This document shows positions 2,916 through 43,037 of a stretch of 62,095 nt of DNA, piece by piece. The DNA is from Squalus acanthias (taxonomy: Eukaryota), in contig CM059450.1 in NCBI GenBank assembly GCA_030390025.1, positions 3,410,001 through 3,472,095 of the forward strand. Reading direction: 5' to 3'. Below the pieces are notes generated by a model, which searched no databases, had not been told where the DNA came from, and saw only the letters and a program-made list of their open reading frames with translations. A program made the position numbers and the translations under genes. Positions within the stretch are counted from its first letter, which is position 1. Each line of letters starts with the position of its first letter.

Positions 2916-3304
2916 GGAGAGCCCTGCGGTGATGCTCAGCTTCCCCTGCCTCCATGGTAAAAGGGGTATTGGAGAGCCCTGCGGTGATGCTCAGCTTCCC
3001 CTGCCTCCATGGTAAAAGGGGTATTGGAGAGCCCTGCGGTGATGCTCAGCTTCCCCTGCCTCCATGGTAAAAGGGGTATTGGAGAGCCCTGCGGTGATGC
3101 TCAGCTTCCCCTGCCTCCATGGTAAAAGGGGTATTGGAGAGCCCTGCGGTGATGCTCAGCTTCCCCTGCCTCCATGGTAAAAGGGGTATTGGAGAGCCCT
3201 GCGGTGATGCTCAGCTTCCCCTGCCTCCATGGTAAAAGGGGTATTGGAGAGCCCTGCGGTGATGCTCAGCTTCCCCTGCCTCCATGGTAAAAGGGGTATT
3301 GGAG
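2916..3304. repeat. 55-bp minisatellite, 7 perfect copies
   Basis: Unit GGAGAGCCCTGCGGTGATGCTCAGCTTCCCCTGCCTCCATGGTAAAAGGGGTATT starts at 2916, 2971, 3026, 3081, 3136, 3191 and 3246. Confidence 0.97.
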
Positions 3305-8186: not shown

Positions 8187-9416
8187 GTAAGTAGGTCGTG
8201 TTCCTTTTCAACCTTCCCTTCAATGGTTCTATGGGGAAATTTAAAACCAATGGCTGCTCTCGTAGAATAGATGAGTATTGGGTTTCTTTTCAGCGTTGTT
8301 CCTTAACCGGTTCTCCACTTGCAAAACCACCACAGGGGCCAGCACTTGCTGTGGTGCTGTAAGACCCTGTATGAAGCCTCCTTGTTCAATTCCAGCAAAC
8401 GCCCATGAGGAGACTGCTGGTATTACTTTCCTGAGGTGTGGTCATGCGATGAGGGAGGGAGAAGAAGTGCAGTACATGTGTATTGTGCACGTGGTTGGTA
8501 TGCAAGCTCGGCTTCCCCACCGATGGGATTTGTGATCTCTGCATCAATGTGTGGAGATCAGGAACTTCGCCTCTGGCATGGGGGACAAAATCTGGGCATG
8601 GGGAGAAATTCTTCCTGCAGACCTGACGCTATCTGTCCACAGGAGGAACACTTCCAAAGCCCAGGCCATGCTCGCTCATCTCATGGCAACGGTTGTTGAA
8701 AACTATGTGCAGTCTGTTCTTGCAAGCTTTCTTCTCTCCTGAAGGTGGGGTGGCTCTCGCTGATGTACAATTCCACGGGCACTAGCTGCCCTTCAGTACC
8801 TCACCCAAAATCTTTTTATAATCCTTTTTATGAACATTGTTGTTGGGCTATTTGACCTAGAGGCCATCGCAAGCGAGCCCGATCCTATCCTCCGCCAACA
8901 CTCGCTCTCCAGCAAAGGCCACCGAATAGTAATCGGGAACCTTAAACTGGATAGCAGTCAAGAATGGAAAGCTTGCAGTGTTTTCCTTCTATGGGCACTA
9001 AGGCTAATTGTCGCACCCTTCCCTCGCCCCAACTGCTGCCCCGGCTGAGGGCAGCCAACCCTGCACAGACCAAAGATCCAACTTGGGACCATGTGGTCTG
9101 CATAGCTCAGTGCGGAACCAGACGCTGTCCTTACCCACTTCGCCCATTAAGTGTTCTTTTGAAAGGCTAAAAGGTGGAATCTTATTTGGTACTTGATGTT
9201 GAAGTCTTTGTGCGTCTGTAGTCAATTGCTTATTTTACTTTTATTCCCTCCTTTTTTTAATTGCTGCTAAAGATAAACCATCAGATATTCTAGTGTCAAC
9301 ATGAGAAAATTGATTTTTGAAAATCCTACCCACTATAAATTATTTTGATTTTCTTTTTTACTCAAGGCAATATTTAATAACACGGTGATGATTATTCATA
9401 TTTTGCTTTTTTGTAG

Positions 9417-11843
9417 ACGCAAACCCTGGAGGTGCTGGTTCAAATTATGCAAATTCTGCTTGGGGTTCTGGATCATCCAGCACTGACCTCAACCACGGCT
9501 GGGATAAGTTAATCGTAGACGGGTCTGATATGGAGGCTTGGCCTTGCATCACAGGCAGAGACTCTGAGTCGGCTTCGGAACACGTAGACAACGAAGGTGC
9601 CTCAACCCTTGGCTCCGAGAAGAGCCTGCCACCCGGAAGTGGCGCTGCCAGGAGCTGCAAAGGAACTGCAAACCAGTTCGCTGCTGGGAGCGGAAAGAAT
9701 GAATGTAAATTGGGGGCCTGGAACATGGGCCTCGTGCCTAAACCCAGTCACGCATCTTCCATCTCTTCGGAGAGCAAAGACGGACTTAACAATTGGAAAA
9801 ACTTGAGCAGCCCCGATGGAGCTGGCCTTGGGTTGACCTTGAACCCAAATATCAACCCATCGGCCTGGCCAGTGTTGGGCCAGGAGGGCACTTCTGGAAA
9901 AGGGACTTTGGAGACGGACATTTCGAGCTCCAGTGCACAACTTAGTGCAGTAGGTCAAAGCCCTAGGGATCAGGACGGTACTTCTGCAAGCGCCTGGGCA
10001 AAACAGTCAAAAACGGAAAATGCGGGTGTTACATGGAATGCTTCTGTTGGAGAACAGCCTCAAGCTCTTAACACTGATGGACCAAATAATGGTGACACTA
10101 ACTCTTTGAATGCAAGCTCACAGAGCACCGGGAACCCTTTGCAAAATAAGGGAGTGTCTGATACGACAGGGAATGGGACCTGGAACATGCCCTTAGGAAT
10201 GGGTTTGGGAAACCCCTTGGTATTGAATCAATCTGTGAGCACTGAAGCCTCATCCGAAGGCAGTATTAGAGGAACTATGGAAGGACGGGGAGCTGGGGGA
10301 ACTTGGAATACAGTTTGGGGGTCTTCGGGAACTGACTCGATTTCTGGACAGAATGGTACAGGAGCTGATGGCAATAATGGACGCAATGGTGACGATGCAG
10401 CAAAAACTGGCTCTGGTATGAAACAGTTACTGGTGAATAGATCAAGAACTGAATCGTGGGACAATAATGGCGGATCATGGGACTCTGAGGCACAAGACCC
10501 CAATAAGGCAAAAAACTGGGGGAAAGGGAACAGAGCAGCATCTGGTGGTGCTCAGGGTTTGTGGGGTCAACAGCCAGGGACTGATAATCGCTCAGAAGGG
10601 GAGTGGGGTGGCCCTCCTAATGAACAGAATTGTGGCACAGGCGGATGGGACAATCACAGGGTAAACCCCCTCCCAGAAAACCAAGGAGAGAACTCCCAAA
10701 ATTCCAACTGGGTAAAGGCCTCTAGTTCCACTGGGAGTGACTCGGGTAGTCGAAGCAACAACAAAAAGGGAGGCTCTGAAAACCACCCAGGAGGACGGCG
10801 CTTAAACAAGACTGAGCCTCCTGACCAAGATGAGGTATTGCAAACTGTAATAAACAGGGCTGATCTGGACCCGAGAGTGTTGTCGAACACTGGGTGGGGC
10901 CAAACTCAGATAAAACAGAACACAATGTGGGATGTTCAGGAGTCACCCAGGAATGAGAGGCGCACTGACAAAGGAACAGAAGGGTGGGAGAGCACCGCCG
11001 CTCAGAGCACTAACTCAGGGGGCTGGGGCGAAGGGCCCAGTCAAAGCAGTCACTGCACCTCTGGGTGGGGAGATGCTCCGCAGTCTTCAAACATGGAGTG
11101 GAAGGATTCTAAGAATCCCAGTGGCTGGGTGGACCCAAAGAACAGTCAAGGTTGGGGAGGTGGAACACCAGAAGAGAAGACACCATCATGGAATGATGGG
11201 CCTAGAATCAAGGAACCGGGTTGGGCTGCAAGACAGCAACCAACTCAAGGTTGGTCTGCCAATAATGGTTGGGGCGATGGAGGTGGGCAACCAGCTGAAC
11301 AACCAAAAGCAGGTGGCTGGGACAGTTCGAACTCGAGGTGGGGTGAGAGTGGTCGTGGTGATGTAGGATCATGGGGAGGTGGCAGTAATTCTAATTCCAA
11401 TCAGAGAGGTGGGTGGGACGACCCCACAAGACACCAGGGATGGGGTGAGTCGTCCAAAACAGCCGCTCCGAATTGGAACAAGCAGCAAGATGTGTCTGGC
11501 TCTTGGGGCACTCCGTCTGCTGGTAGCCGGCAGTCAGGATCTGGTTGGGGCTCGGCGCCTGTGCCGCCTATGCCACCTGCAACTGTGCCACCTGCACCCA
11601 TCCCAACTGTGCCAAAGGAGGAAGAACCTACTGGATGGGAAGAGCCTTCACCGCAGTCCATCTCCCGAAAGATGGAGATTGATGATGGCACCTCAGCCTG
11701 GGGAGATCCCAACAGCTACAACTACAAGAATGTGAATCTGTGGGACAAGAACTCCCAAAACGAGAGCTCTGGAAGTGGGCCGACGCCACGGGAGCAGAAT
11801 GCATCCAATGCGGTTACAGGACGAGGTTCCACATCAAGTTCTG
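9417..11843 (+). CDS. TNRC6B: TNRC6B large GW-rich exon (Argonaute-binding domain)
   Basis: ttgtag acceptor, G|gtaagt donor, 2427 nt. Contains WDKLIVDGSDMEAWPCI, NPNINPSAWP, DLDPRVLSNTGWGQTQIKQNTMWD and EEPTGWEEPSPQSISRKMEIDDGTSAWGDP. Confidence 0.98.
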
Positions 11844-11887
11844 GTAAGTCACCCAGTTATTTGTACGTTCTTCTACTTCTATAAGTA

Positions 11888-12232
11888 CAGGAAACTCTTA
11901 AACCGGCAACATGCCGGTGCCGGTTAATTATCAAAAAGTCCGGATAACGGAGTGTTATATCTACCAAGGTACAGGGAGCCCCGTACATGGCCACAGATCC
12001 AGGAGTCCCTGGTGCATGGCCACAGGTGCAAGAACCCCGGTCACATTAAAGAATTTCTGCATCTCCCTTCTTGTGACAGATCTTACAGCGAGCATTCAGC
12101 AAAGACTTGCCCCATATAATGCTACGATCCAGTGTAGAGAGAGGAAGGAAAACCCCGGTTACCTACTCAAGAATTTTGCCGGTTAAGAGAGATTTCCGGA
12201 TATTTGGGTGCCGGTTAATAAAGAGTTTCCTG
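11888..12232. mobile_element. Tc1/mariner-pogo (Tigger-like) MITE, 345 bp
   Basis: TA|CAGGAAACTCTT...AAGAGTTTCCTG|TA: 12-bp TIRs with TA target duplication. Confidence 0.85.
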
Positions 12233-12740
12233 TATGTACAAGCAAACAAATTGTGTTGATCAGTTCAGGGGAGCTTCAATTTATGGAAATATAGAGGTAT
12301 CTTATCTTATTGGTTCTTGTATTATTCCAACCAAATTCAACTGCCAGCTCCACTGATATTGCAGTGGATAAATGCATCGTCAGGTGTAGCACTAAGTTAT
12401 ACAGTCCAGAAAGTTCCACGTTTAATTCCCAGTCTGTGCGGCGTTAACTGATCTCAGCCAGGTTGGCATTTAAGATGTGATCGTTTGACTAGGAAGGGGT
12501 GACTTGGTCAGGGTTCCCAGGTCTGATCCTTATCCAGTGACCTTTTCTGGTAAGACATCAGGCGAGAGCAGGATTGGGGTGGCCTGGTAATTATGCTCTT
12601 TGTGACCGATTAGTCTGCCAGTGCTTGCTATCTAGGCTCACGCATGTAGAGTGACCACTTGGACAATGTATCGGGGAGCTGCCAGCAACTAGAGGTCTAT
12701 ATTCCAGTCCAGCGAGGGCAACAAACATAACCACACTGTT

Positions 12741-13455
12741 CACAACCTTGGTGTCATATTTGACCCTGAAATGAGCTTCTGACCACACATCCGCGGCATA
12801 ACTAAGACTGCCTATTTCCACCTCTAACATCGCCTGTTTCTGCCCTTGCCTTAGCTCATCTGCTGCTGAAACCCTCATCCATGCCTTTGTTACCTCTAGA
12901 CTTGACTATTCCAACGCACTCCTGGCCGGCCTCCCACATTCTACCCTACAAAACCTAAGGTCATCCAAAACTCGGCTGCCTGTGTCCTAACTCGCACTAA
13001 ATCCCATCACCTCTGTGCTCGCTGACCTACATTTGCTCCCGGTTAAGCAACGCCTCGACTTCAAAATTCTCATCCTTGTTTTCAAATCCCTCCATGGCCT
13101 CGCCCCCTCCCTATCTCTGTAATCTCCTCCAGCCCCACAACCCCCCGAGATATCTGCGCTCCTCTAATTCTGCCCTCTTGAGCATCCCTGATTATAATCG
13201 CTCAACCATTGGTGGCCGTGCCTTCTGTTGCCTGGGCCCTAAACTCTGGAATTCCCTGCCTAAACCTCTCCGCCTCGCTACCTCTCTTTCCTCCTTTAAG
13301 ATGCTCCTTAAAACCTACCTCTTTGACTAAGCTTTTGGTCACCTGCCCTAATTTCTCTCTGTGGCTCGGTGTCAAATTTTGTTTGATAATCGCTCCTGTG
13401 AAGCGCCTTGGATGTTTTACTACGCTAAAGGTGCTATATAAATACAAGTTGTTGT
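12741..13455 (+). mobile_element. L2-type LINE 3' fragment
   Basis: Degenerate ORF2 C-terminus (LIHAFVTSRLDYSNALL; RSTIGGRAFCCLGPKLWNSLP) and L2-like tail GTGAAGCGCCTTGG...AAAGGTGCTATATAAATACAAGTTGTTG. Confidence 0.85.
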
Positions 13456-13639
13456 GTATATGAATGCCAGGGTACGTGAAGAGGCCCTGACAGCAGTGGG
13501 AGCGATACATTCACAACTGAATCCCACAGATCTGCGTTATCAATGTGTACAGTTGTCTTTATGGTACATAAACTATAACCCATCAGAGGCGTTGCTGCGC
13601 ACACTGTGTATAGTTTCACAAGCTCACGTGATGGGTTTG

Positions 13640-13910
13640 GATGAAGATAGCCCTTTAGGACTGAGATGAGGAGAAATGTCTTCACTCAGAGGGTTGTGAA
13701 TCTTTGGAATTCTCTACCCCAGAGGGGTGTGGATGCTCAGTTGTTGAGTATATTCAAGGCTGAGATCGATAGATTTTTGGACTCTAGGGGAATCAAGGGA
13801 TATGGGGATCGGGCAGGAAAGTGGAGTTGAGGTCGAAGATCAGCCATGATCTTCTTGAATGGCGGAGCAGGCTCGAGGGGCCGAATGGCCGACTCCTGCT
13901 CCTTATGTTC
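13640..13910 (+). mobile_element. CR1-type LINE 3' end
   Basis: EMRRNVFTQRVVNLWNSLP-coding remnant plus CR1 3' UTR. Confidence 0.85.
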
Positions 13911-15309
13911 TTATTTAGTTCATTTGATCTCATCCATCCAAAATATCAACCCAATTACAGTATCTATCTGTTATTAAATGTGTGCAGTGAGCTGGCCTCA
14001 ACCACCCTTCCTGGCAAGATGCTCCAGTTGTTGGATTTGCACGAATGTGGAGCCTACGTCATCCAACTGATGGCGGCCAATCACAGATGAAACTCTTTGG
14101 AAGTTCTCTTCAGTCCCTATGGAAATCAAGCGAATTCCAGACTATTAATCCATCTTTGCAATCCCGCACTTCTATCTCTGAGCAGTCACATTCCCCAGCT
14201 GATCATCCCTGCACTATATCAGCTCTTGGATCATTTATTGTGCTGTGTCTGTCTTTATCCGCTTCAATCGCCTTCTAAAAGAGATTTTTCCAGCTTTTTT
14301 TTAATAGGGTTAATCGTGACCGATTTAACTGCTTCCTTGACAGCTGTTCCGCGTATCTCGGAGTGAGGGGGTGTCTCTCCTAATTTCTTGGCACACAAGT
14401 TTTGTTAATTTTGTATTTGTGTCCCGTGCTCTGATCTGAGAAATTGCATCCGTTAGCCATTGCCCCTGTCTGAGTAATGTACTTTTTTTTTCCGACTCTT
14501 CCCCTCATCATCTGTTCACTTTCAACTGAGTTACTGCCCTGCAAGAGAAGTTGGCAGCAGGTGCAGACTGATGCCGGGAAGTCCGAGCTGCAGTGTGCAC
14601 ACACACACAGAGGCTTCTTTGTGTCCTACAAGCTGCACCTCCCTTTGCTGGGAAAGGAATCTCTGGATTCTGTACGGAGGCTGCAGTTTTATATCAGACT
14701 ACAATAACCAACAGATAAGATCCTGCTTTTGGAATTTTAAGTTAAAGCGCATGTTTTTCATGAAAGCTCCGGTAAGAAATTGGAAGTTTGCGTCAAGCCT
14801 GAGTCATTTGACTATTTGCTTTGGGGTTTTAACAAAACACCATGGAAAATATTTCTGACCTCTTCCCACTGGTCTATGGAAGATCATTCTTCAATAAACT
14901 TTATTAACATGGCCCTCTCTCTCTCTCTCTCTCTCTCTCTGGCAGTCATCTGACATTCCCAACAGTATTGCTCACATCTTTGAACTTAAAATGCACGCAA
15001 TGGCCTCGAATTCGGCTGCCTTTGCTAAAGGGAAAGATGCTATCTTTGATGTAAGGTGTGCTTGCCTGCAGTATTTTTTTTTTAAACAATGGTGCCCATT
15101 GCAAGACTGAATCTTTCTGGTGCATTGTCTTGGAGCATGATTCCATGGGGATACTCAGCTTCAGTTTCCTGAACATCAGCACTCTGCAGTGCAGTTGTGA
15201 GGCAGCAAGCAGAGCCCAGTGCCCCTTCACAAAGGGGAGGGGAAAATGGGGCATGGTTGCATTTAAGCCACTGCCATGCGTGTTCTTTCCATTGCTTCCT
15301 CTTTGGTGT

Positions 15310-15613
15310 CATAAGAATTAGGAGCAGGAGTCGGCCATACGGCCCCTCGAGCCTGCTCCGCCATTCAATAAGATCATGGCTAATCTTCAGTCTCCACTCC
15401 ACTTTCCTGTCCGATCTCCATGTCCCTTGATTTCCCAAGAGTCCAAAAATCTATCGATCTCGGCCTTGAATATACTCAATGACAGAGCCTCCACAGCCCT
15501 CTGGGGTAGAGAATTCCAAAGATTCACAACCCTCTGAGTGAAGAAATTCCTCCTCATCTCAGTCCTAAATGGCCGACTCCTTATCCTGAGACTGTGACCC
15601 CTGGTTCTAGACT
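15310..15613 (-). mobile_element. CR1-type LINE 3' end
   Basis: Same family as 13640-13910, opposite orientation. Confidence 0.85.
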
Positions 15614-16121
15614 CGTGTCCTCTGCTGACAGCACTGATTTCTGGAATGTGGTTCCATGGGCACTGGCCACCCTACAGTACGTTTCACGTGGCCGTTCCTC
15701 ATTTATGCACCTGGCTTGATCGATTGGTTATCCTCATAAAGACATGTCCTGTGTCATGTCCCTGCCTGATATCCACAGACTTTACCAGCAGGATTCACCT
15801 AGATAATGATCGAGAGCAAGAACCTGGGCAGGTTTTCTGGGTTTTTATTCTCGTCCCCAGCACTGAGATCGATTGTAGCTTTCTCACTAAACGTCTGGCT
15901 GAGATCAGATCATTCAAGGCCTGGGACTTGCCTGGTCTCTGTAGCTCGGGCAAACAAAAGCAAAATACTGCGGATGCTGGAAATCTGAAATAAAAACAGA
16001 AAATGCTGGAAACGCTCAGCAGGTCAGGCAGCATCTGTGGAGAGAGAAACAGAGTCAAAGTTTCAGGTCGATGACCTTTCGTCAGAACTGAAAAATGTTA
16101 GCGATGAGCAGTTCTTATGCT

Positions 16122-16500
16122 AACATAGAAAAATAGGAGCAGGAGTAGGTCATTCGGCCTTCGAGCCTGCTCCGCCGTTCAATATGATCATGGCTGATCC
16201 TCTATCTCAATACCATATTCCCGCTCTCTCCCCATACCCCTTGATGCCTTTTGTGTCTAGAAATCTATCTATCTCCTTCTTAAATATATTCAGTGACTTG
16301 GCCTCCACAGCCTTCTGTGGTAGAGAATTCCACAGGTTCACCACCCTCTGAGTGAAGAAATTTCTCCTCATCTCAGTCCTAAATGTCCTGCCCCGTATCC
16401 TGAGACTGTGACCCCTCGTTCTAGACCCCCCAGCCAGAGGAAACATCCTCCCTGCATCCAGTCTGTCTAGCCCTGTCAGAATTTTATACGTTTCAATGAG
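16122..16500 (-). mobile_element. CR1-type LINE 3' end inserted into a short shark repeat (15955-16660)
   Basis: Minus-strand ORF LIETYKILTGLDRLDAGRMFP...RRNFFTQRVVNLWNSLPQKAVEAKSLNIFKKEIDRFL is CR1 ORF2 C-terminus. Confidence 0.85.
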
Positions 16501-17029
16501 ATAATACAGAGGCCGGGGTGGGGGGTGAAGAACAAAAGGAAGGCAGGAGTGATTAAATGATGAAAGGGATGATGGTGCAAGGCGAAAGGGAGTGATAATG
16601 CGACAAGTAAAGAAACAAAAGATGGGTCCAGCGGAGATGTAAATGGCAACAGCAGAATAGCAGGGAGGGAAGCATGGAAAATCTTGTTCTGCTTTCCTTC
16701 TTCTATTTGTTTTATTTTTTGATAAGTATTTTTGTTCAAATGAAGAATGCTGATGACCTTTATTGGGGTATTGGCTCATAAGGGTTACTGAGGGGAGCAA
16801 CAGTAGGGAATTAAATCAACATCTGTGCACCTCTGCCTATTAACGCAGGACACCTCCGTGCTTTGCATTGCTTCAAGTCTGTACGTGTGCATGTTAATAC
16901 AGTTCTCTCAGATTTCAGTAATAGCTCCCATCCAGCGTCCCTGACATGGCTGTCAGCACTTGTTAGTTAAATAGAACTTTTTCGCAGTCTCCCCGCAGTA
17001 GAACCTTTCCTCTCGCGCTCTCTCTCTTG

Positions 17030-18314
17030 CTTGGAGCAAGTCACCAGAGTCACACTGGCTGGGGGGAGGCCGGAGGAGAAACACACTGGCTGGAGGGAGC
17101 CACCAGAGAGTCACACTGGCTGGGGGGAGCTGGAGGAGAGTCACACTGGCTGGGGGGAGCCACCAGAGAGTCACACTGGCTGGGGGGAGCCGGAGGAGAG
17201 TCACACTGGCTGGGGGGAGCTGGAGGAGAGTCACACTGGCTGGGGGGAGCTGGAGGAGAGTCACACTGGCTGGGGGGAGCTGGAGGAGAGTCACACTGGC
17301 TGGGGGGAGCCACCAGAGAGTCACACTGGCTGGGGGGAGCCACCAGAGAGTCACACTGGCTGGGGGGAGCTGGAGGAGAGTCACACTGGCTGGGGGGAGC
17401 CACCAGAGAGTCACACTGGCTGGGGGGAGCCGGAGGAGAGTCACACTGGCTGGGGGGAGCCACCAGAGAGTCACACTGGCTGGGGGGAGCCGGAGGAGAG
17501 TCACACTGGCTGGGGGGAGCCGGAGGAGAGTCACACTGGCTGGGGGGGAGCCGGAGGAGAGTCACACTGGCTGGGGGGAGCCGGAGGAGAGTCACACTGG
17601 CTGGGGGGAGCCGGAGGAGAGTCACACTGGCTGGAGGGAGCCACCAGAGAGTCACACTGGCTGGGGGGAGCTGGAGGAGAGTCACACTGGCTGGGGGGGA
17701 GCCGGAGGAGAGTCACACTGGCTGGGGGGAGCCGGAGGAGAGTCACACTGGCTGGGGGGGAGCCGGAGGAGAGTCACACTGGCTGGGGGGGAGCCTGAGG
17801 AGAGTCACACTGGCTGGGGGGAGCCGGAGGAGAGTCACACTGGCTGGGGGGGAGCCGGAGGAGAGTCACACTGGCTGGGGGGGAGCCGGAGGAGAGTCAC
17901 ACTGGCTGGGGGGGAGCCGGAGGAGAGTCACACTGGCCGGGGGGAGCCGGAGGAGAGTCACACTGGCTGGGGGGAGCCGGAGGAGAGTCACACTGGCTGG
18001 GGGGAGGCCGGAGGAGACTCACGCTGGCTGGAGGGAGCCACCAGAGAGTCACACTGGCTGGGGGGAGCCGGAGGAGAATCACGCTGGCTGGGGGGAGGCC
18101 GGAGGAGAGTCACACTGGCTGGGGGGAGGCCGGAGGAGAGTCACACTGGCTGGGGGGAGGCCGGAGGAGAGTCACACTGGCTGGGGGGAGGCCGGAGGAG
18201 AATCACGCTGGCTGGAGGGAGCCACCAGAGAGTCACACTGGCTGGGGGGAGCCGGAGGAGAGTCTTGCGCCCCCATCAGAATGGGCAACACCCCTACAAA
18301 TGCCAACAAATCTA
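17030..18314 (+). CDS. TNRC6B: Putative TNRC6B cassette exon expanded by a GW-coding minisatellite; frameshifted as assembled, so could be a pseudo-exon
   Basis: Begins (C)TTGGAGCAAGTCA = WSKS and ends GGCAACACCCCTACAAATGCCAACAAATCTA|gtgagt = GNTPTNANKS with a phase-1 donor that fits the exon at 20461. These ends resemble the human exon VWSKS...GWGNTPANAPNAMKP. The acceptor at the homologous position reads TG, not AG, and several 1-2 nt indels break the GW frame. Confidence 0.6.
17043..18263 (+). repeat. 30-31 bp tandem repeat, 40 copies (GAGAGTCACACTGGCTGGGGGGAGCCGGAG), translating as ESHTGWGEPE
   Basis: 40 occurrences of CAC(A/G)CTGGC counted. Variants give PPE/LEE/PEE, S/N/T/K, T/A and WG/WR. 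Confidence 0.98.
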
Positions 18315-19559
18315 GTGAGTTAACAGGAGAAGGTATTGAGGATTATCTTTCTCTCTTGTCTCTGATCTCAGTTGTACGGAGCATAAAAACCCAGGAACTC
18401 CCGTCAGCAATCAGAGGGGTTCTTTTCTTCTCATTGGACCGAATGATTTGCAAACCTTCAGCACTTTTTTTAATGGATTCTTGAGTATTGCAAGTAGACT
18501 GCCTTCTCTGGGCCAGAGATACCCCGCCCACACTGGATAAGGGCAGCACTGGGCTTGGCTGTGTTGTGTGTAATTCAATAGTCTGCCAATGCCTGAACAG
18601 CAAGGCTGCATTTCAGGATGGTCAGTTGAGCAAGCCACTTGCCAGAAGGCTGCCAGGATACTTGGAACTGTGTCCGAGTCCCTAGGAGAGGAGGGAAAGA
18701 TCCATTTCATACTTGTGTGCTGCATTTGGTCCTTTTTAAAATTTGTTACTGGGTAGCAAGGCTTTACGTCAAAAAATGCTGACATGACGTCCCTAATGGA
18801 TTGCACTGGTTGTGGAGTGGAAAATTGGATGCAAATCGGTATCGTCTGATTGTGACCGCGTCACTGAGATTTGAGTTCATTCACGTGTAATCCATGTGCG
18901 TGGCGTGAAGCCCCAACAGTGGAGCAGCAACCATTTGTGTAAAATGCTCAAAGCATGTTTTAAAATCCACTAAAACATATTTTATCAATTGCCAGGTTTT
19001 GACAGCTGAATATATTAGGCGTACTTTCCAAACACGCCTTGCTAACTGGTTGTTTCCGTTTTTAAGTTGGAAGTTTCCAGAGTGACACTGGTTTCAGTAT
19101 CGTGACACACTGTTTTCCTGTCCACTCATAACTTCTTAATCATTTCTCAGCTCGGTTTCTAGATCCAACCAGTCAACGGGTGCCCCATGTCAGTTTGGTT
19201 GAGTAACCTAATGACATCACTGAGGCAGGGAATCCCTGATAACCTGCTGTTTCTATTTACTTGAAGATCAATTGAAGTACTGAACAGAGAATATTTTTAA
19301 TGTTTTAATTGCATGTTTTAAAATTCAAACCAGCCCAGTATTAAAGAGCTGATGACCATTTTTTTTCACCTTATAACTGTATTTGTTTTTCTGTGTATAA
19401 CTTTCTCTTCTAGCTGCCTGATTTTGTTAGAGACGGTTTCAATCAGTTGACATTTCCTCCAGGGGTTTTCTTTCCTCCGGTTTTTTCTTTTCCTCTTCCT
19501 CCTCACACTCGCGCTCTCACGCACACACTGAAAACGCCCCTAACGCTTTTGACACCAGC

Positions 19560-20283
19560 TGACCCTTGACATTCTTCAGCATAACCATCGCAGAATCCCC
19601 AACCATCAACATCCTGGAGGTCACCATTGAGCAGAAACTTAACTGGATCAGCCACATTAATACTGTGGCTACAAGAGCAGGTCAGAGGCTGGGTATTTTG
19701 CGGCGAGTGTCTCACCTCCCGACTCCCCAAAGCCTTTCCACCATCTACATGGCGCAAGTCAGGAGTGTGATGGAATACTCTCCACTTGCCTGGATGAGTG
19801 CAGCTCCAACAACACTCAAGCTCGACACTATCCAGGACAAAGCAGCCCACTTGATCGGCACCCCGCCCACCACCCTTAAACATTCACTCCCTCCACCACC
19901 GGCGCACCGTGGCTGCAGTGTGTACCATCTACAAGATGCACTGCAGCAACTCGCCAAGGCTTCTTCAACAGCACCTCCCAAACCTGCGACCTCTACCACC
20001 AGAAGGACAAGGGCAGCAGACACATGGGAACGCCACCACTTCCCAGTTCCCCTCCAAGTCACACACCATCCTGACTTGGAAGTATATCGCCGTTCCTTCA
20101 TCGTCACTGAGTCAAAATCCTGGAACGACCTCCCTAACAGCACTGTGGGAGCACCTTCACCACACGGACTGCAGCGGTTCAAGGCGGCGGCTCACCACCA
20201 CCTTCTCGAGGGCAATTAGGGATGGGCAATAAATGCTGGCCTTGCCAGCGACGCCCACATCCCAGGAACGAATAAAATAAAAA
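19560..20283 (+). mobile_element. non-LTR retrotransposon (LINE) 3' fragment with A-rich tail
   Basis: Post-RT coding remnant (INILEVTIEQKLNWISHINTVATRAGQRLGILRR...IYMAQVRSVMEYSPLAW), frameshifted; ends CCCACATCCCAGGAACGAATAAAATAAAAA. Confidence 0.85.
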
Positions 20284-20460
20284 CTGAGCATGGACTAGGG
20301 ATCAAACCTGAGACCTCCTTGTTCTGTGTCTGTTATTCACCACCTTGGATAGTTAAGTGACCAGGGAGCCATATTTCCATAGAGGAGTTTGTGAGTTAAT
20401 TTCTTTTTAAATTTTAAAATTCTTTTGAGGAATAAAATGCTGAATATATCTTTTCTTCAG

Positions 20461-20645
20461 GTTCAAAATCTATGCAGGATGGGTGGGGAGGTGGTGATAG
20501 ACCTGCTGTGGCAAGTACCCGCCCCCCAAGCTGGGAGGAAGATGATGATGGTCCAATCGGCCTGTGGAACAGTGCCGGAACTCAGGAGAGTAATTCACCC
20601 TACAACGCATCTAACTGGACCTCAGGCGGGAAGAAAATTCACAAG
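20461..20645 (+). CDS. TNRC6B: TNRC6B coding exon (SKSMQDGWGG...PPSWEEDDDG...GGKKIHK)
   Basis: cttcag acceptor, AAG|gtaagg donor, 185 nt, phase 1-0. Confidence 0.95.
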
Positions 20646-21007
20646 GTAAGGATGGGAAATTCTTATAAGGATAAGCAGATGGTGAATTATCTTTCTCTCG
20701 CTTCTGGGAGCCTGGTTCAATTCCAGCGTCTAGACAGAGGCTGAGACGGCCTCTCCCTTTGTGTGTCTTTTTCTAACGCGCCAATTTGTCAATGGAGACT
20801 TCAGCGATTCAGGTATGGTGCAGCTTGCGGTAGGTCAACGAGCAATAACATTTGTGTGATGGAACCTGAATTTTCGATGGTGTCATACGATGGCACGAAT
20901 GTATCGTCCGCCAAAAGAGTCATGCAGGGAAAAAAACGAGGCAAACCTGGAAGTACACCAGATCGATCAGCCTCTGCAAGAGAAAGATCGGTGAGCATTT
21001 CAAGTAT

Positions 21008-21122
21008 GGGCCCTCCGTCAGCGCTCCGAGGGGCCCTCCGTCAGCGCTCCGAGGGGCCCTCCGTCAGCGCTCCGAGGGGCCCTCCGTCAGCGCTCCGAGG
21101 GGCCCTCCGTCAGCGCTCCGAG
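21008..21122. repeat. 23-bp tandem repeat, 5 copies (GGGCCCTCCGTCAGCGCTCCGAG)
   Basis: Units at 21008, 21031, 21054, 21077 and 21100, embedded in a short interspersed repeat. Confidence 0.95.
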
Positions 21123-22337
21123 GGGGTCTCCTGAAATTGTCACCTAACTTTCCTTTTCAGGCACTGACCTGCTGTGCACTTCCAGAATTCTCTTTGTATT
21201 TCACATTTTCAATGTTCCCAGTTTTTCCCTTTTTTATGTCTACAACAGCCAGAAAATCTGCCTGGTACAATCTTCCTTTTTTTGGCGAGGGGGGGGGACA
21301 ATTCTGAACGATGAATAAATTTGATTTTTTTTTTTAAACATGACATGAGGTTGTGCAGTTACCTCAACGGCTCACAGTTACAGTGTGGCACGGCGATCGA
21401 GGTGTGACTTTTAGTGACGGAAACAACTGCTGAGCAAGATCAGCCCTTGTCTCTGAGAAGGTGGGGTTCCAACAGAATACAAGAAATGAGTCCTGTTTTC
21501 TGATGCGGAATTCTAGTTTTGGTCATTTATTTCTGTTGTACGCTTGTACCATGCTGAGGCATTTTGATTAAATTTGTACCATTTTGTTTTATAAAAATTG
21601 TAAATGCAGGAGTTGCATCATCATGCAAGTCTTTTTTAACTAGCCACAAGCAATGTTCCCCCTGAGGTGCCTGGCCGCGCATCAATCAATTTAAAGGGCC
21701 TGTACAGGGGGATAGAAAATTAGAGCAAACATTGGCCACAAGCCAGGTGGGTGAACGTTTGCAGCAGTACAAACCCTGTCTGGCTTCCTGAGCATTTTAG
21801 ATCTTGATCAGTCATCCAGCCAACACAGGTTTGTGCAGTAATCAAACCCTGCGAGTTTCGAAAAAGAATTGCAAATATAAAAGGGCCCGTTTTAAGCAGT
21901 CCTGTCATTCTCCGTCGCTGTGTGCCGGAGTGGCTCCTGATTTTATTTTTTTTAAGTCGGCGTGACTGGTTCACGCCGGCAGTACTGCTGCAACATGCAC
22001 GATTAGGATCACAGCCGGCCTTGTCCAGATTTTGTTCCAGTTTAAACTGGTGAGGGGGACTGAGGGATTGCAGTGGCTTGGCAATCATATCCTTCCATCC
22101 CTGGGACCTGGAGCTGTGCGAGTGCAGCACAAACTGATGAGCTGAGCAGTTCCCTCTCTGCTGGCAGGAAGAGTGCTCCAGTCGGGTGGGTTTTTGTTGG
22201 AATTTCTAATCCAGGGTAGTGGGCTGGACCCATAACACTGCGCGTAGTTCACGCTAATTGGCACTAAATTGATCATCTGTTTCAGTTGGGAAGGGATGAT
22301 CGCTGTGGAGAAATAGGAATATCACACTGTTGCAGTG

Positions 22338-29364: not shown

Positions 29365-29411
29365 CCCCCCCCCACCCCCAACTGCATGCTGATTGGCTAA
29401 CTCTCCTTCAG

Positions 29412-29582
29412 CTGACTCTGCCTTTCTCCAATCAAGACGGGTGCCTGTCTGACGAGGCACCTAACTCGCCCTTCTCCCCTCCTCCGAGCTGCAAGCTGTC
29501 TCCCTCGGGCACTGCTCTACCCACCGCCAGCCTCGGCTGCATCGGCTCTGGTCTTAACATGCAAAACCTAAACGCTAGACAC
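29412..29582 (+). CDS. TNRC6B: TNRC6B symmetric cassette exon ([33 protein letters not shown]...NARH)
   Basis: cttcag acceptor with CTAAC branch point, CAC|gtaagg donor, 171 nt, phase 0-0. Confidence 0.95.
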
Positions 29583-42404: not shown

Positions 42405-43037
42405 AGGAGAGAGCTGGAGGCAGTGGGGAGAGAGAGCTGGGGGGGAAGAGAGAGCTGGAGGCAGTGAGAGAGAGAGAGAGAGAGCGCGGGACGGAGAGAG
42501 AGCTGGAGGCAGTGTGAGAGCGGGACAGAGAGAGAGCTGGAGGCAGTGTGAGAGAGTGGGACGGAGAGAGAGCTGGAGGCAGTGAGAGAGAGAGAGCGGG
42601 ACGGAGAGAGCTGGAGGCAGTGAGAGAGAGAGCGGGACGGAGAGAGCTGGAGGCAGTGTGAGAGAGAGCGGGACGGAGAGGGAGCTGGAGGCAGTGTGAG
42701 AGAGCGGGACGGAGAGAGAGCTGGAGGCAGTGAGAGCGGGACGGAGAGAGAGCTGGAGGCAGTGAGAGAGCGGGACGGAGAGAGAGCTGGAGGCAGTGTG
42801 AGAGCGGGACGGAGAGAGAGCTGGAGGCAGTGTGAGAGCGGGACGGAGAGAGAGCTGGAGGCAGTGTGAAATAGAGAGCGGGACGGAGAGAGAGCTGGAG
42901 GCAGTGGGGAGAGAGCTGGAGGCAGTGGGGAGAGAGCTGGAGGCAGTGGGGAGAGAGCTGGAGGCAGTGGGGAGAGAGCTGGAGGCAGTGGGGAGAGAGC
43001 TGGAGGCAGGGAGAGAGAGAGCGGGACGGAGAGAGCG
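42405..43037. repeat. GA-rich compound minisatellite (GAGAGAGCTGGAGGCAGTG with GGGA or GAGAGCGGGACG spacers)
   Basis: About 20 copies of GCTGGAGGCAG with variable GA spacers; strongly purine-skewed. Confidence 0.95.

Follow-up and report, generated by a model that had tools for sequence, protein, structure and literature searches.

A probable dead TNRC6B hook exon overrun by a G-rich minisatellite in the shark Squalus acanthias

The window analysed here, a stretch of 62,095 nucleotides from Squalus acanthias, contains most of a shark TNRC6B gene, whose exons are detected as 18 collinear tblastn segments of the sawshark TNRC6B protein with 81–100% identity. The best protein matches for the region searched are all named TNRC6B, the nearest among the matches listed being those of Pristiophorus (92%) and Heptranchias (90%). 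A minisatellite array is located in an 8.6-kb intron of this gene, between the large GW exon (donor at 11844) and the SKSMQDGW exon (20461), two exons that can be joined directly in frame (Table 1). A second cassette exon of 57 amino acids, present at positions 29409–29582, is intact and separates the long TNRC6B isoforms of at least seven sharks from the short ones. Other tandem arrays are also found in introns of the gene, at positions 2916–3304 (55 bp × 7.1, 100% matches) and 21008–21125 (23 bp × 5.1, 100%), and a GA-rich compound array of 21/34 bp occupies positions 42428–43019. A run of 500 N (approximately 1810–2310) directly follows a (CT)n tract.

Table 1. Position of the array, its flanking remnants and the neighbouring TNRC6B exons in the window.
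Feature	Position	Strand	Remarks
Large GW-rich TNRC6B exon	9413–11843 (start approximate)	+	95.6% identity to sawshark TNRC6B (tblastn); 41 Trp in 817 codons; constitutive DDGTSAWG hook inside; phase-1 donor GTAAGT at 11844
Polypyrimidine tract with dead 3′ splice site	17006–17029	+	ends in TG (17028–17029) instead of the acceptor AG
Probable 5′ remnant of the hook exon, W-S-K-S-P-E	17030–17049	+	WSKS at 17032–17043, then −2 break relative to the repeat frame
First AG past the pyrimidine tract (a GAG)	17035–17036	+	candidate rescue acceptor; tract 15/20
Minisatellite, 40 units	17045–18257	+	27 units of 30 bp and 13 of 31 bp; tandem-repeat and unit-by-unit reading
Probable 3′ remnant of the hook exon	18258–18314	+	SLAPPSEW (repeat frame), −1 break, GNTPTNANKS
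Phase-1 donor GTGAGT	18315–18320	+	intact in the window, AT in organism C
Next constitutive exon (SKSMQDGWG...)	20461–20672 (end approximate)	+	in frame with 11843

The 40 tandem units of about 30 bp described in the original prediction are present at a single locus of the genome: an exact 24-nt pattern of the unit yields 22 matches in 3.7 Gb, all at the array locus, and controls yield none. With head-to-tail units in the range of 10–100 bp, high identity and a single locus, the array corresponds to a minisatellite (VNTR). Its composition is biased (69% GC, 48% G), and its propensity to form quadruplexes is raised, with G4Hunter scores of at least 1.2 in 34% of the 25-nt array windows versus 3.6% elsewhere. 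In the sequencing run X2, words with about 10 occurrences in the window are covered about 12 times more deeply than unique sequence (93.2/7.67), a contig depth that cannot be used to size the array.

Each unit, read in its own frame, encodes ESHTGWGE(P/L)(E/P), and the predicted counts of 35 GWG, 4 GWR and 1 GRG are correct unit by unit. However, the array has no single GW frame: because 13 of the 40 units are 31 bp long (seven with a G7 run and six with GAGGCC), this frame is limited to at most 16 consecutive units, with a 15-unit in-frame run at 17076–17525. A GW/WG platform with Trp residues about ten or more positions apart therefore appears only when the frame is reset at each unit. Some of the 31-bp units may be assembly errors, the interior of the array lying beyond the coverage of the run contigs. 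The lack of stop codons among unit substitutions had been noted in the original prediction. Indeed, none of the 13 distinct substitutions creates a stop, but this has a probability of 0.48 by chance and we rejected its reading as selection. Ten of the 13 are non-synonymous, versus 10.4 expected under neutrality. Judged from the sequence, the unit substitutions look neutral and display no sign of coding constraint.

In bony vertebrates, the same intron harbours a hook cassette exon of 52–57 amino acids (35 distinct versions), which is included in some TNRC6B models and skipped in others and which aligns with 5w6v_B, the TNRC6A hook peptide of a crystal structure (E = 1.6e-4). This cassette likely corresponds to human TNRC6B exon 6, a GW-rich, alternatively spliced and RAVER1-regulated exon whose deletion lowers AGO2 binding (PMC11039986, available text). 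According to a review, the Ago-binding sites of TNRC6 proteins contain at least two Trp residues, ten or more residues apart (PMC9262622, available text). We compared the shark locus with this exon from head to tail. The profile of the 35 bony-vertebrate exons has its two best matches in the window inside the array (10.6 and 10.5 bits). The head of the remnant ranks 2 of 8415 pyrimidine-preceded positions when compared with bony-vertebrate exon starts, and its tail ranks 32 of 6750 GT positions. Moreover, the last two units plus the tail can be aligned collinearly, at the DNA level, with the TNRC6A hook exon of the same genome (score 66, reached by 1 of 500 shuffles). The motifs WSKS, WGEP..GWGE and WGNTP follow one another in the order of the hook cassette, at its intron position and with its phase-1 donor. 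The 5′ WSKS, the 3′ GNTPTNANKS with its GTGAGT and the junction of this donor with the 20461 exon in the GNTPT frame were all as predicted.

These similarities are individually weak; combined with the order of the motifs, the intron and the phase, they make it likely that the array and its flanks are homologous to the TNRC6B hook cassette exon. The proposed origin of the array from this exon thus gains support, both from the 5w6v_B match of the bony-vertebrate exon and from the location of the best profile matches. The period of the unit is the Trp-to-Trp interval of the hook (10 codons, one Trp). The hook core DNGTSAW/DNGTSAWG is absent from the remnant and present in the paralogous TNRC6A exon, which is intact in the same genome (207 nt, with AG, GT and VDNGTAAWG all preserved; locus L006, about 1430–1640). 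A separate intact hook exon in the intron 11844–20460, whose existence would have counted against the original prediction, was searched for with the 35-exon profile in the six frames of the window, and none was found. When the genome was searched with a single turtle exon, the paralogous TNRC6A exon alone was retrieved (E = 0.001), the remnant not being among the matches. Five of its 67 weaker matches (L007–L011) were inspected and correspond to an unrelated dispersed repeat present on many contigs; these matches were considered spurious.

The exon was predicted to be symmetric, but the remnant (17030–18314) is 1285 nt long as assembled, which is not a multiple of 3. The acceptor AG at the homologous position is replaced by TG, both in the window and in the X1 contig. 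Compared with the repeat frame, the WSKSPE head is shifted by −2 and the GNTPT tail by −1, and this −1 break is located in the conserved W-G-N-T-P. Both breaks are reproduced in the run contigs, and the remnant has neither a length that is a multiple of 3 nor a single open frame. The 3′ remnant has the same length in X2, X7 and X9, and the TNRC6A paralog exon has one extra G at the motif.

The X1 contig (DNA, organism A) covers 16636–17066 with no gap and with substitutions only at 16817, 16827 and 16859, being identical to the window over 16860–17066; X1 may be the source sample of the assembly. Since this contig is gapless and its three substitutions lie upstream of 16860, the TG and the −2 break are not base-calling errors. 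The X2 contig (organism A, same species label, other study) covers 18228–18620 and displays a single gap, at 18521, so that the −1 break is real as well. This break is also shared by organism C, because all four gap letters in its X7 contig lie beyond 18520. Two small differences from the window were also noticed in these runs: position 18260 is G in the window and T in X2, X7 and X9 (Glu to Asp in the repeat frame), Asp being a better fit to the bony-vertebrate exon than Glu, and a 13-nt insertion at 12552, common to X1 and X9 contigs, reflects either polymorphism in the intron or a difference in assembly.

Organism C, a related species, carries two further lesions: a G>A change at 18284 converts TGG (Trp) into a TGA stop in the repeat frame, and a G>A change at 18315 converts the donor GT into AT. 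It carries the array too, since the repeat words have a depth of 75–85 in X7 versus 6.6 for unique sequence (about 12×). By hand count, organisms A and C differ at 4 of the 57 sites of the exon tail and at 18 of the 305 sites of the adjoining intron (Fisher P = 0.76), so the tail is not conserved above intron level. A contig of organism B that ends inside unit 1 hints at the presence of the array in this organism. The array has thus persisted across a species split with about 6–7% neutral divergence; we give no date in years for this split, because no usable shark nuclear rate was among the papers listed in our search.

Transcript evidence comes from three samples of one study with unlabelled tissue (X9, X10 and X11), presumptively of RNA type and available as contigs only, from which rare isoforms are dropped; the run search returned no holder recorded as RNA. 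No RNA-type contig has a joint or a loose end at the acceptor 17030 (X9, X10) or at the donor 18314 (X9, X11). The only RNA-type contig to cover the 18314 donor, a 215-nt contig of X9, is unspliced across it, with a depth of 3.8 versus 3.9 in the intronic contig 12499–12637 of the same run. No contig is present at 16764–17110 in X9 and X10, nor on the remnant in X11, blanks that are no proof when taken alone. In X10, a 5890-nt contig tracks the window to 11845, an extent that includes the GT with which the 20461 exon also starts, and continues for 2606 nt, compared to about 2550 nt of coding sequence remaining after the skip junction. These lengths fit a skipped mRNA with a junction between 11843 and 20461. 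The RNA-type contigs of this study are consistent with skipping, and they are compatible with rare or tissue-restricted inclusion.

We looked for the hook exon in 54 chondrichthyan records (TNRC6B or cluster members), two of which (P0138 and P0158) were dropped because both anchors are absent. The 52 remaining models represent 21 species, which comprise sharks, rays and a chimaera; the largest shark/ray cluster was covered with 15 of its 72 members, and gene models can miss rarely included exons. The hook exon is present in none of these 52 models versus 60 of 73 bony-vertebrate models. The two flanking exons are directly joined in 50 of them, and the other two contain a filler unrelated to the hook. 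The filler in the Callorhinchus UniRef models P0155 and P0156 is unlike the hook, and we took these as forced models. The paralogous hook is kept in 15 of 16 chondrichthyan TNRC6A models. No protein of 264–2000 amino acids shares three 5-residue words with the repeat, which is weak evidence. A HMMER search with the last two units against 1.84 billion representatives gave one match, a low-complexity repeat that is unrelated and lacks any scoring stretch. A fragment search across the junction gave three matches and no shark hook exon, the whale-shark model being the skipped form. The TNRC6B hook exon was thus apparently lost across cartilaginous fishes, with a fossil kept in this shark, and the presence of this fossil points to a loss in sharks and not to a gain in bony fish. 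A TNRC6B devoid of the second Ago-hook exon, which is kept and regulated in bony vertebrates, would imply a lower Argonaute valency for this paralog in cartilaginous fishes. In the literature searched on TNRC6/GW182 evolution in cartilaginous fish, on TNRC6B hook splicing and on shark minisatellite pseudo-exons, from which subscription papers were mostly out of scope, neither the locus nor the clade-wide absence is described.

Since the splice acceptor is gone and the remnant is out of frame, it is most likely a non-coding fossil. We conclude with good confidence that the locus is the remnant of a dead TNRC6B hook exon, now probably skipped and probably overrun by a neutral G-rich minisatellite. 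The alternatively spliced array of about 425 amino acids proposed in the original prediction, which would have switched Ago binding on and off, is largely contradicted by X1, X2 and the RNA-type contigs: the acceptor AG is missing, the frameshifts are confirmed and no RNA contig uses the 18314 donor. The lost donor and the stop of organism C also argue against a function of the array. Two points run counter to a dead exon, namely the donor GTGAGT, which is still good, and the GAG at 17035–17036, which would give an open exon of 426 codons.

The array may have originated from the structure of the exon itself. The ancestral exon would have contained two W-(G/R)-E-P motifs exactly 10 codons (30 nt) apart, providing microhomology, and misalignment of these near-repeats could have duplicated one 30-nt period. 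The resulting unit, containing a G6 run, would then have been further expanded and homogenised by slippage and unequal exchange, with a turnover of the G-rich unit as in the other minisatellites of the window. The spliceosome would join 11843 to 20461, producing a hook-less TNRC6B such as annotated in the other cartilaginous fishes examined.

It is conceivable, with rather low probability, that the multiplication of the units began when the exon was still translated. In that case, an ancestor or a living relative (e.g., organism B) would have produced a tandem, plant-style Ago-hook isoform of which the array is the fossil, and a once-coding or still-coding hook array would belong to a clade in which the exon has apparently disappeared from the other members.

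Somewhat less probable is an occasional splicing via the cryptic GAG at 17035–17036, either as a poison exon tuning TNRC6B through NMD or, in alleles whose length is divisible by 3, as a Trp-rich insert of mixed frame, which would read mostly ESHWLGGAGG with 30 Trp, mainly in a non-GWG frame. This GAG is the first AG after a strong pyrimidine tract, the donor is kept in organism A, and the segment 17037–18314 (1278 nt) is open and in frame as assembled; among 71 open in-frame AGs (176 AGs tested), this is the only one with a good pyrimidine tract. However, GAG is a poor splice acceptor, no contig of the RNA-type runs supports its use, and these runs leave the acceptor side blank (X9, X10) and the donor unspliced (X9). 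In addition, organism C has lost the donor, the tail is no better conserved than the intron, and the frame hinges on the 31-bp units of the array interior, beyond run-contig coverage.

An ordinary intronic minisatellite resembling the hook exon by chance would agree with a best profile score of only 10.6 bits, with the missing turtle-exon match and with the modest rank of the tail, but we consider it quite improbable: head, middle and tail follow one another as in the hook exon and occupy the expected intron, a pyrimidine tract precedes the remnant and a donor of the right phase follows it, and the score of the alignment with the paralog hook exon is rarely reached by shuffled sequences. Finally, a live cassette exon encoding a tandem Ago-hook array of about 425 amino acids, with breaks due to assembly errors, is highly improbable. 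It would account for a unit that contains a single Trp and measures exactly 10 codons, close to the spacing described for TNRC6 Ago sites (PMC9262622, available text), for the 15-unit in-frame run and the intact donor, and for seven internal breaks that are G6-to-G7 homopolymer changes typical of long reads, but the run contigs reproduce the lost acceptor and the −2 and −1 breaks, all of them within or next to unique sequence. The −1 break is by itself enough to bring the repeat and the donor into different phases, organism C has a dead donor, and the search of proteins of 264–2000 amino acids detected no such repeat.

The dead hook exon can be compared with several known systems. With the GW-rich cassette exon of bony-vertebrate TNRC6B, it shares the intron, the 1/1 phase, the WSKS head, the WGEP...GWGE middle and the WGNTP tail. 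In contrast to this cassette, which is intact with its 52–57 amino acids, the shark exon has a dead acceptor, a broken frame and no DNGTSAW, and its middle part is amplified 40-fold. One unit covers the stretch from Trp to Trp in the homologous TNRC6A hook peptide (PDB 5W6V chain B; alignment DNGTSAWGKPIDSGPSWGE), but lacks the residues preceding the first Trp and gives no sign of being translated. The array also resembles the C-terminal WG/GW platform of plant NRPE1, which is made of tandem repeats with GW/WG peptides whose expansion is thought to proceed by illegitimate recombination (PMC4476159, available text). The NRPE1 repeats, however, are in frame within a protein, whereas the shark array is frame-broken and has no transcript support. 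A coding array would have allowed valency models to be tested directly and would have been, to our knowledge, the first tandem hook platform in a vertebrate GW182.

GC-rich minisatellites (VNTRs) and pseudo-exons typically occupy a single locus with a short G-rich unit, contain interspersed variants homogenised within species and tolerate indels. The shark array is alike in its locus, unit, variants and tolerated indels; the combination of a dead exon and a minisatellite is ordinary in kind and is filed here as a pseudo-exon with a minisatellite, a warning against the annotation of a giant GW array at the TNRC6B locus. It differs from ordinary VNTRs by a unit that can be derived from a single period of a known motif for protein binding, and would provide a clear example of the internal period of a protein motif seeding a minisatellite.
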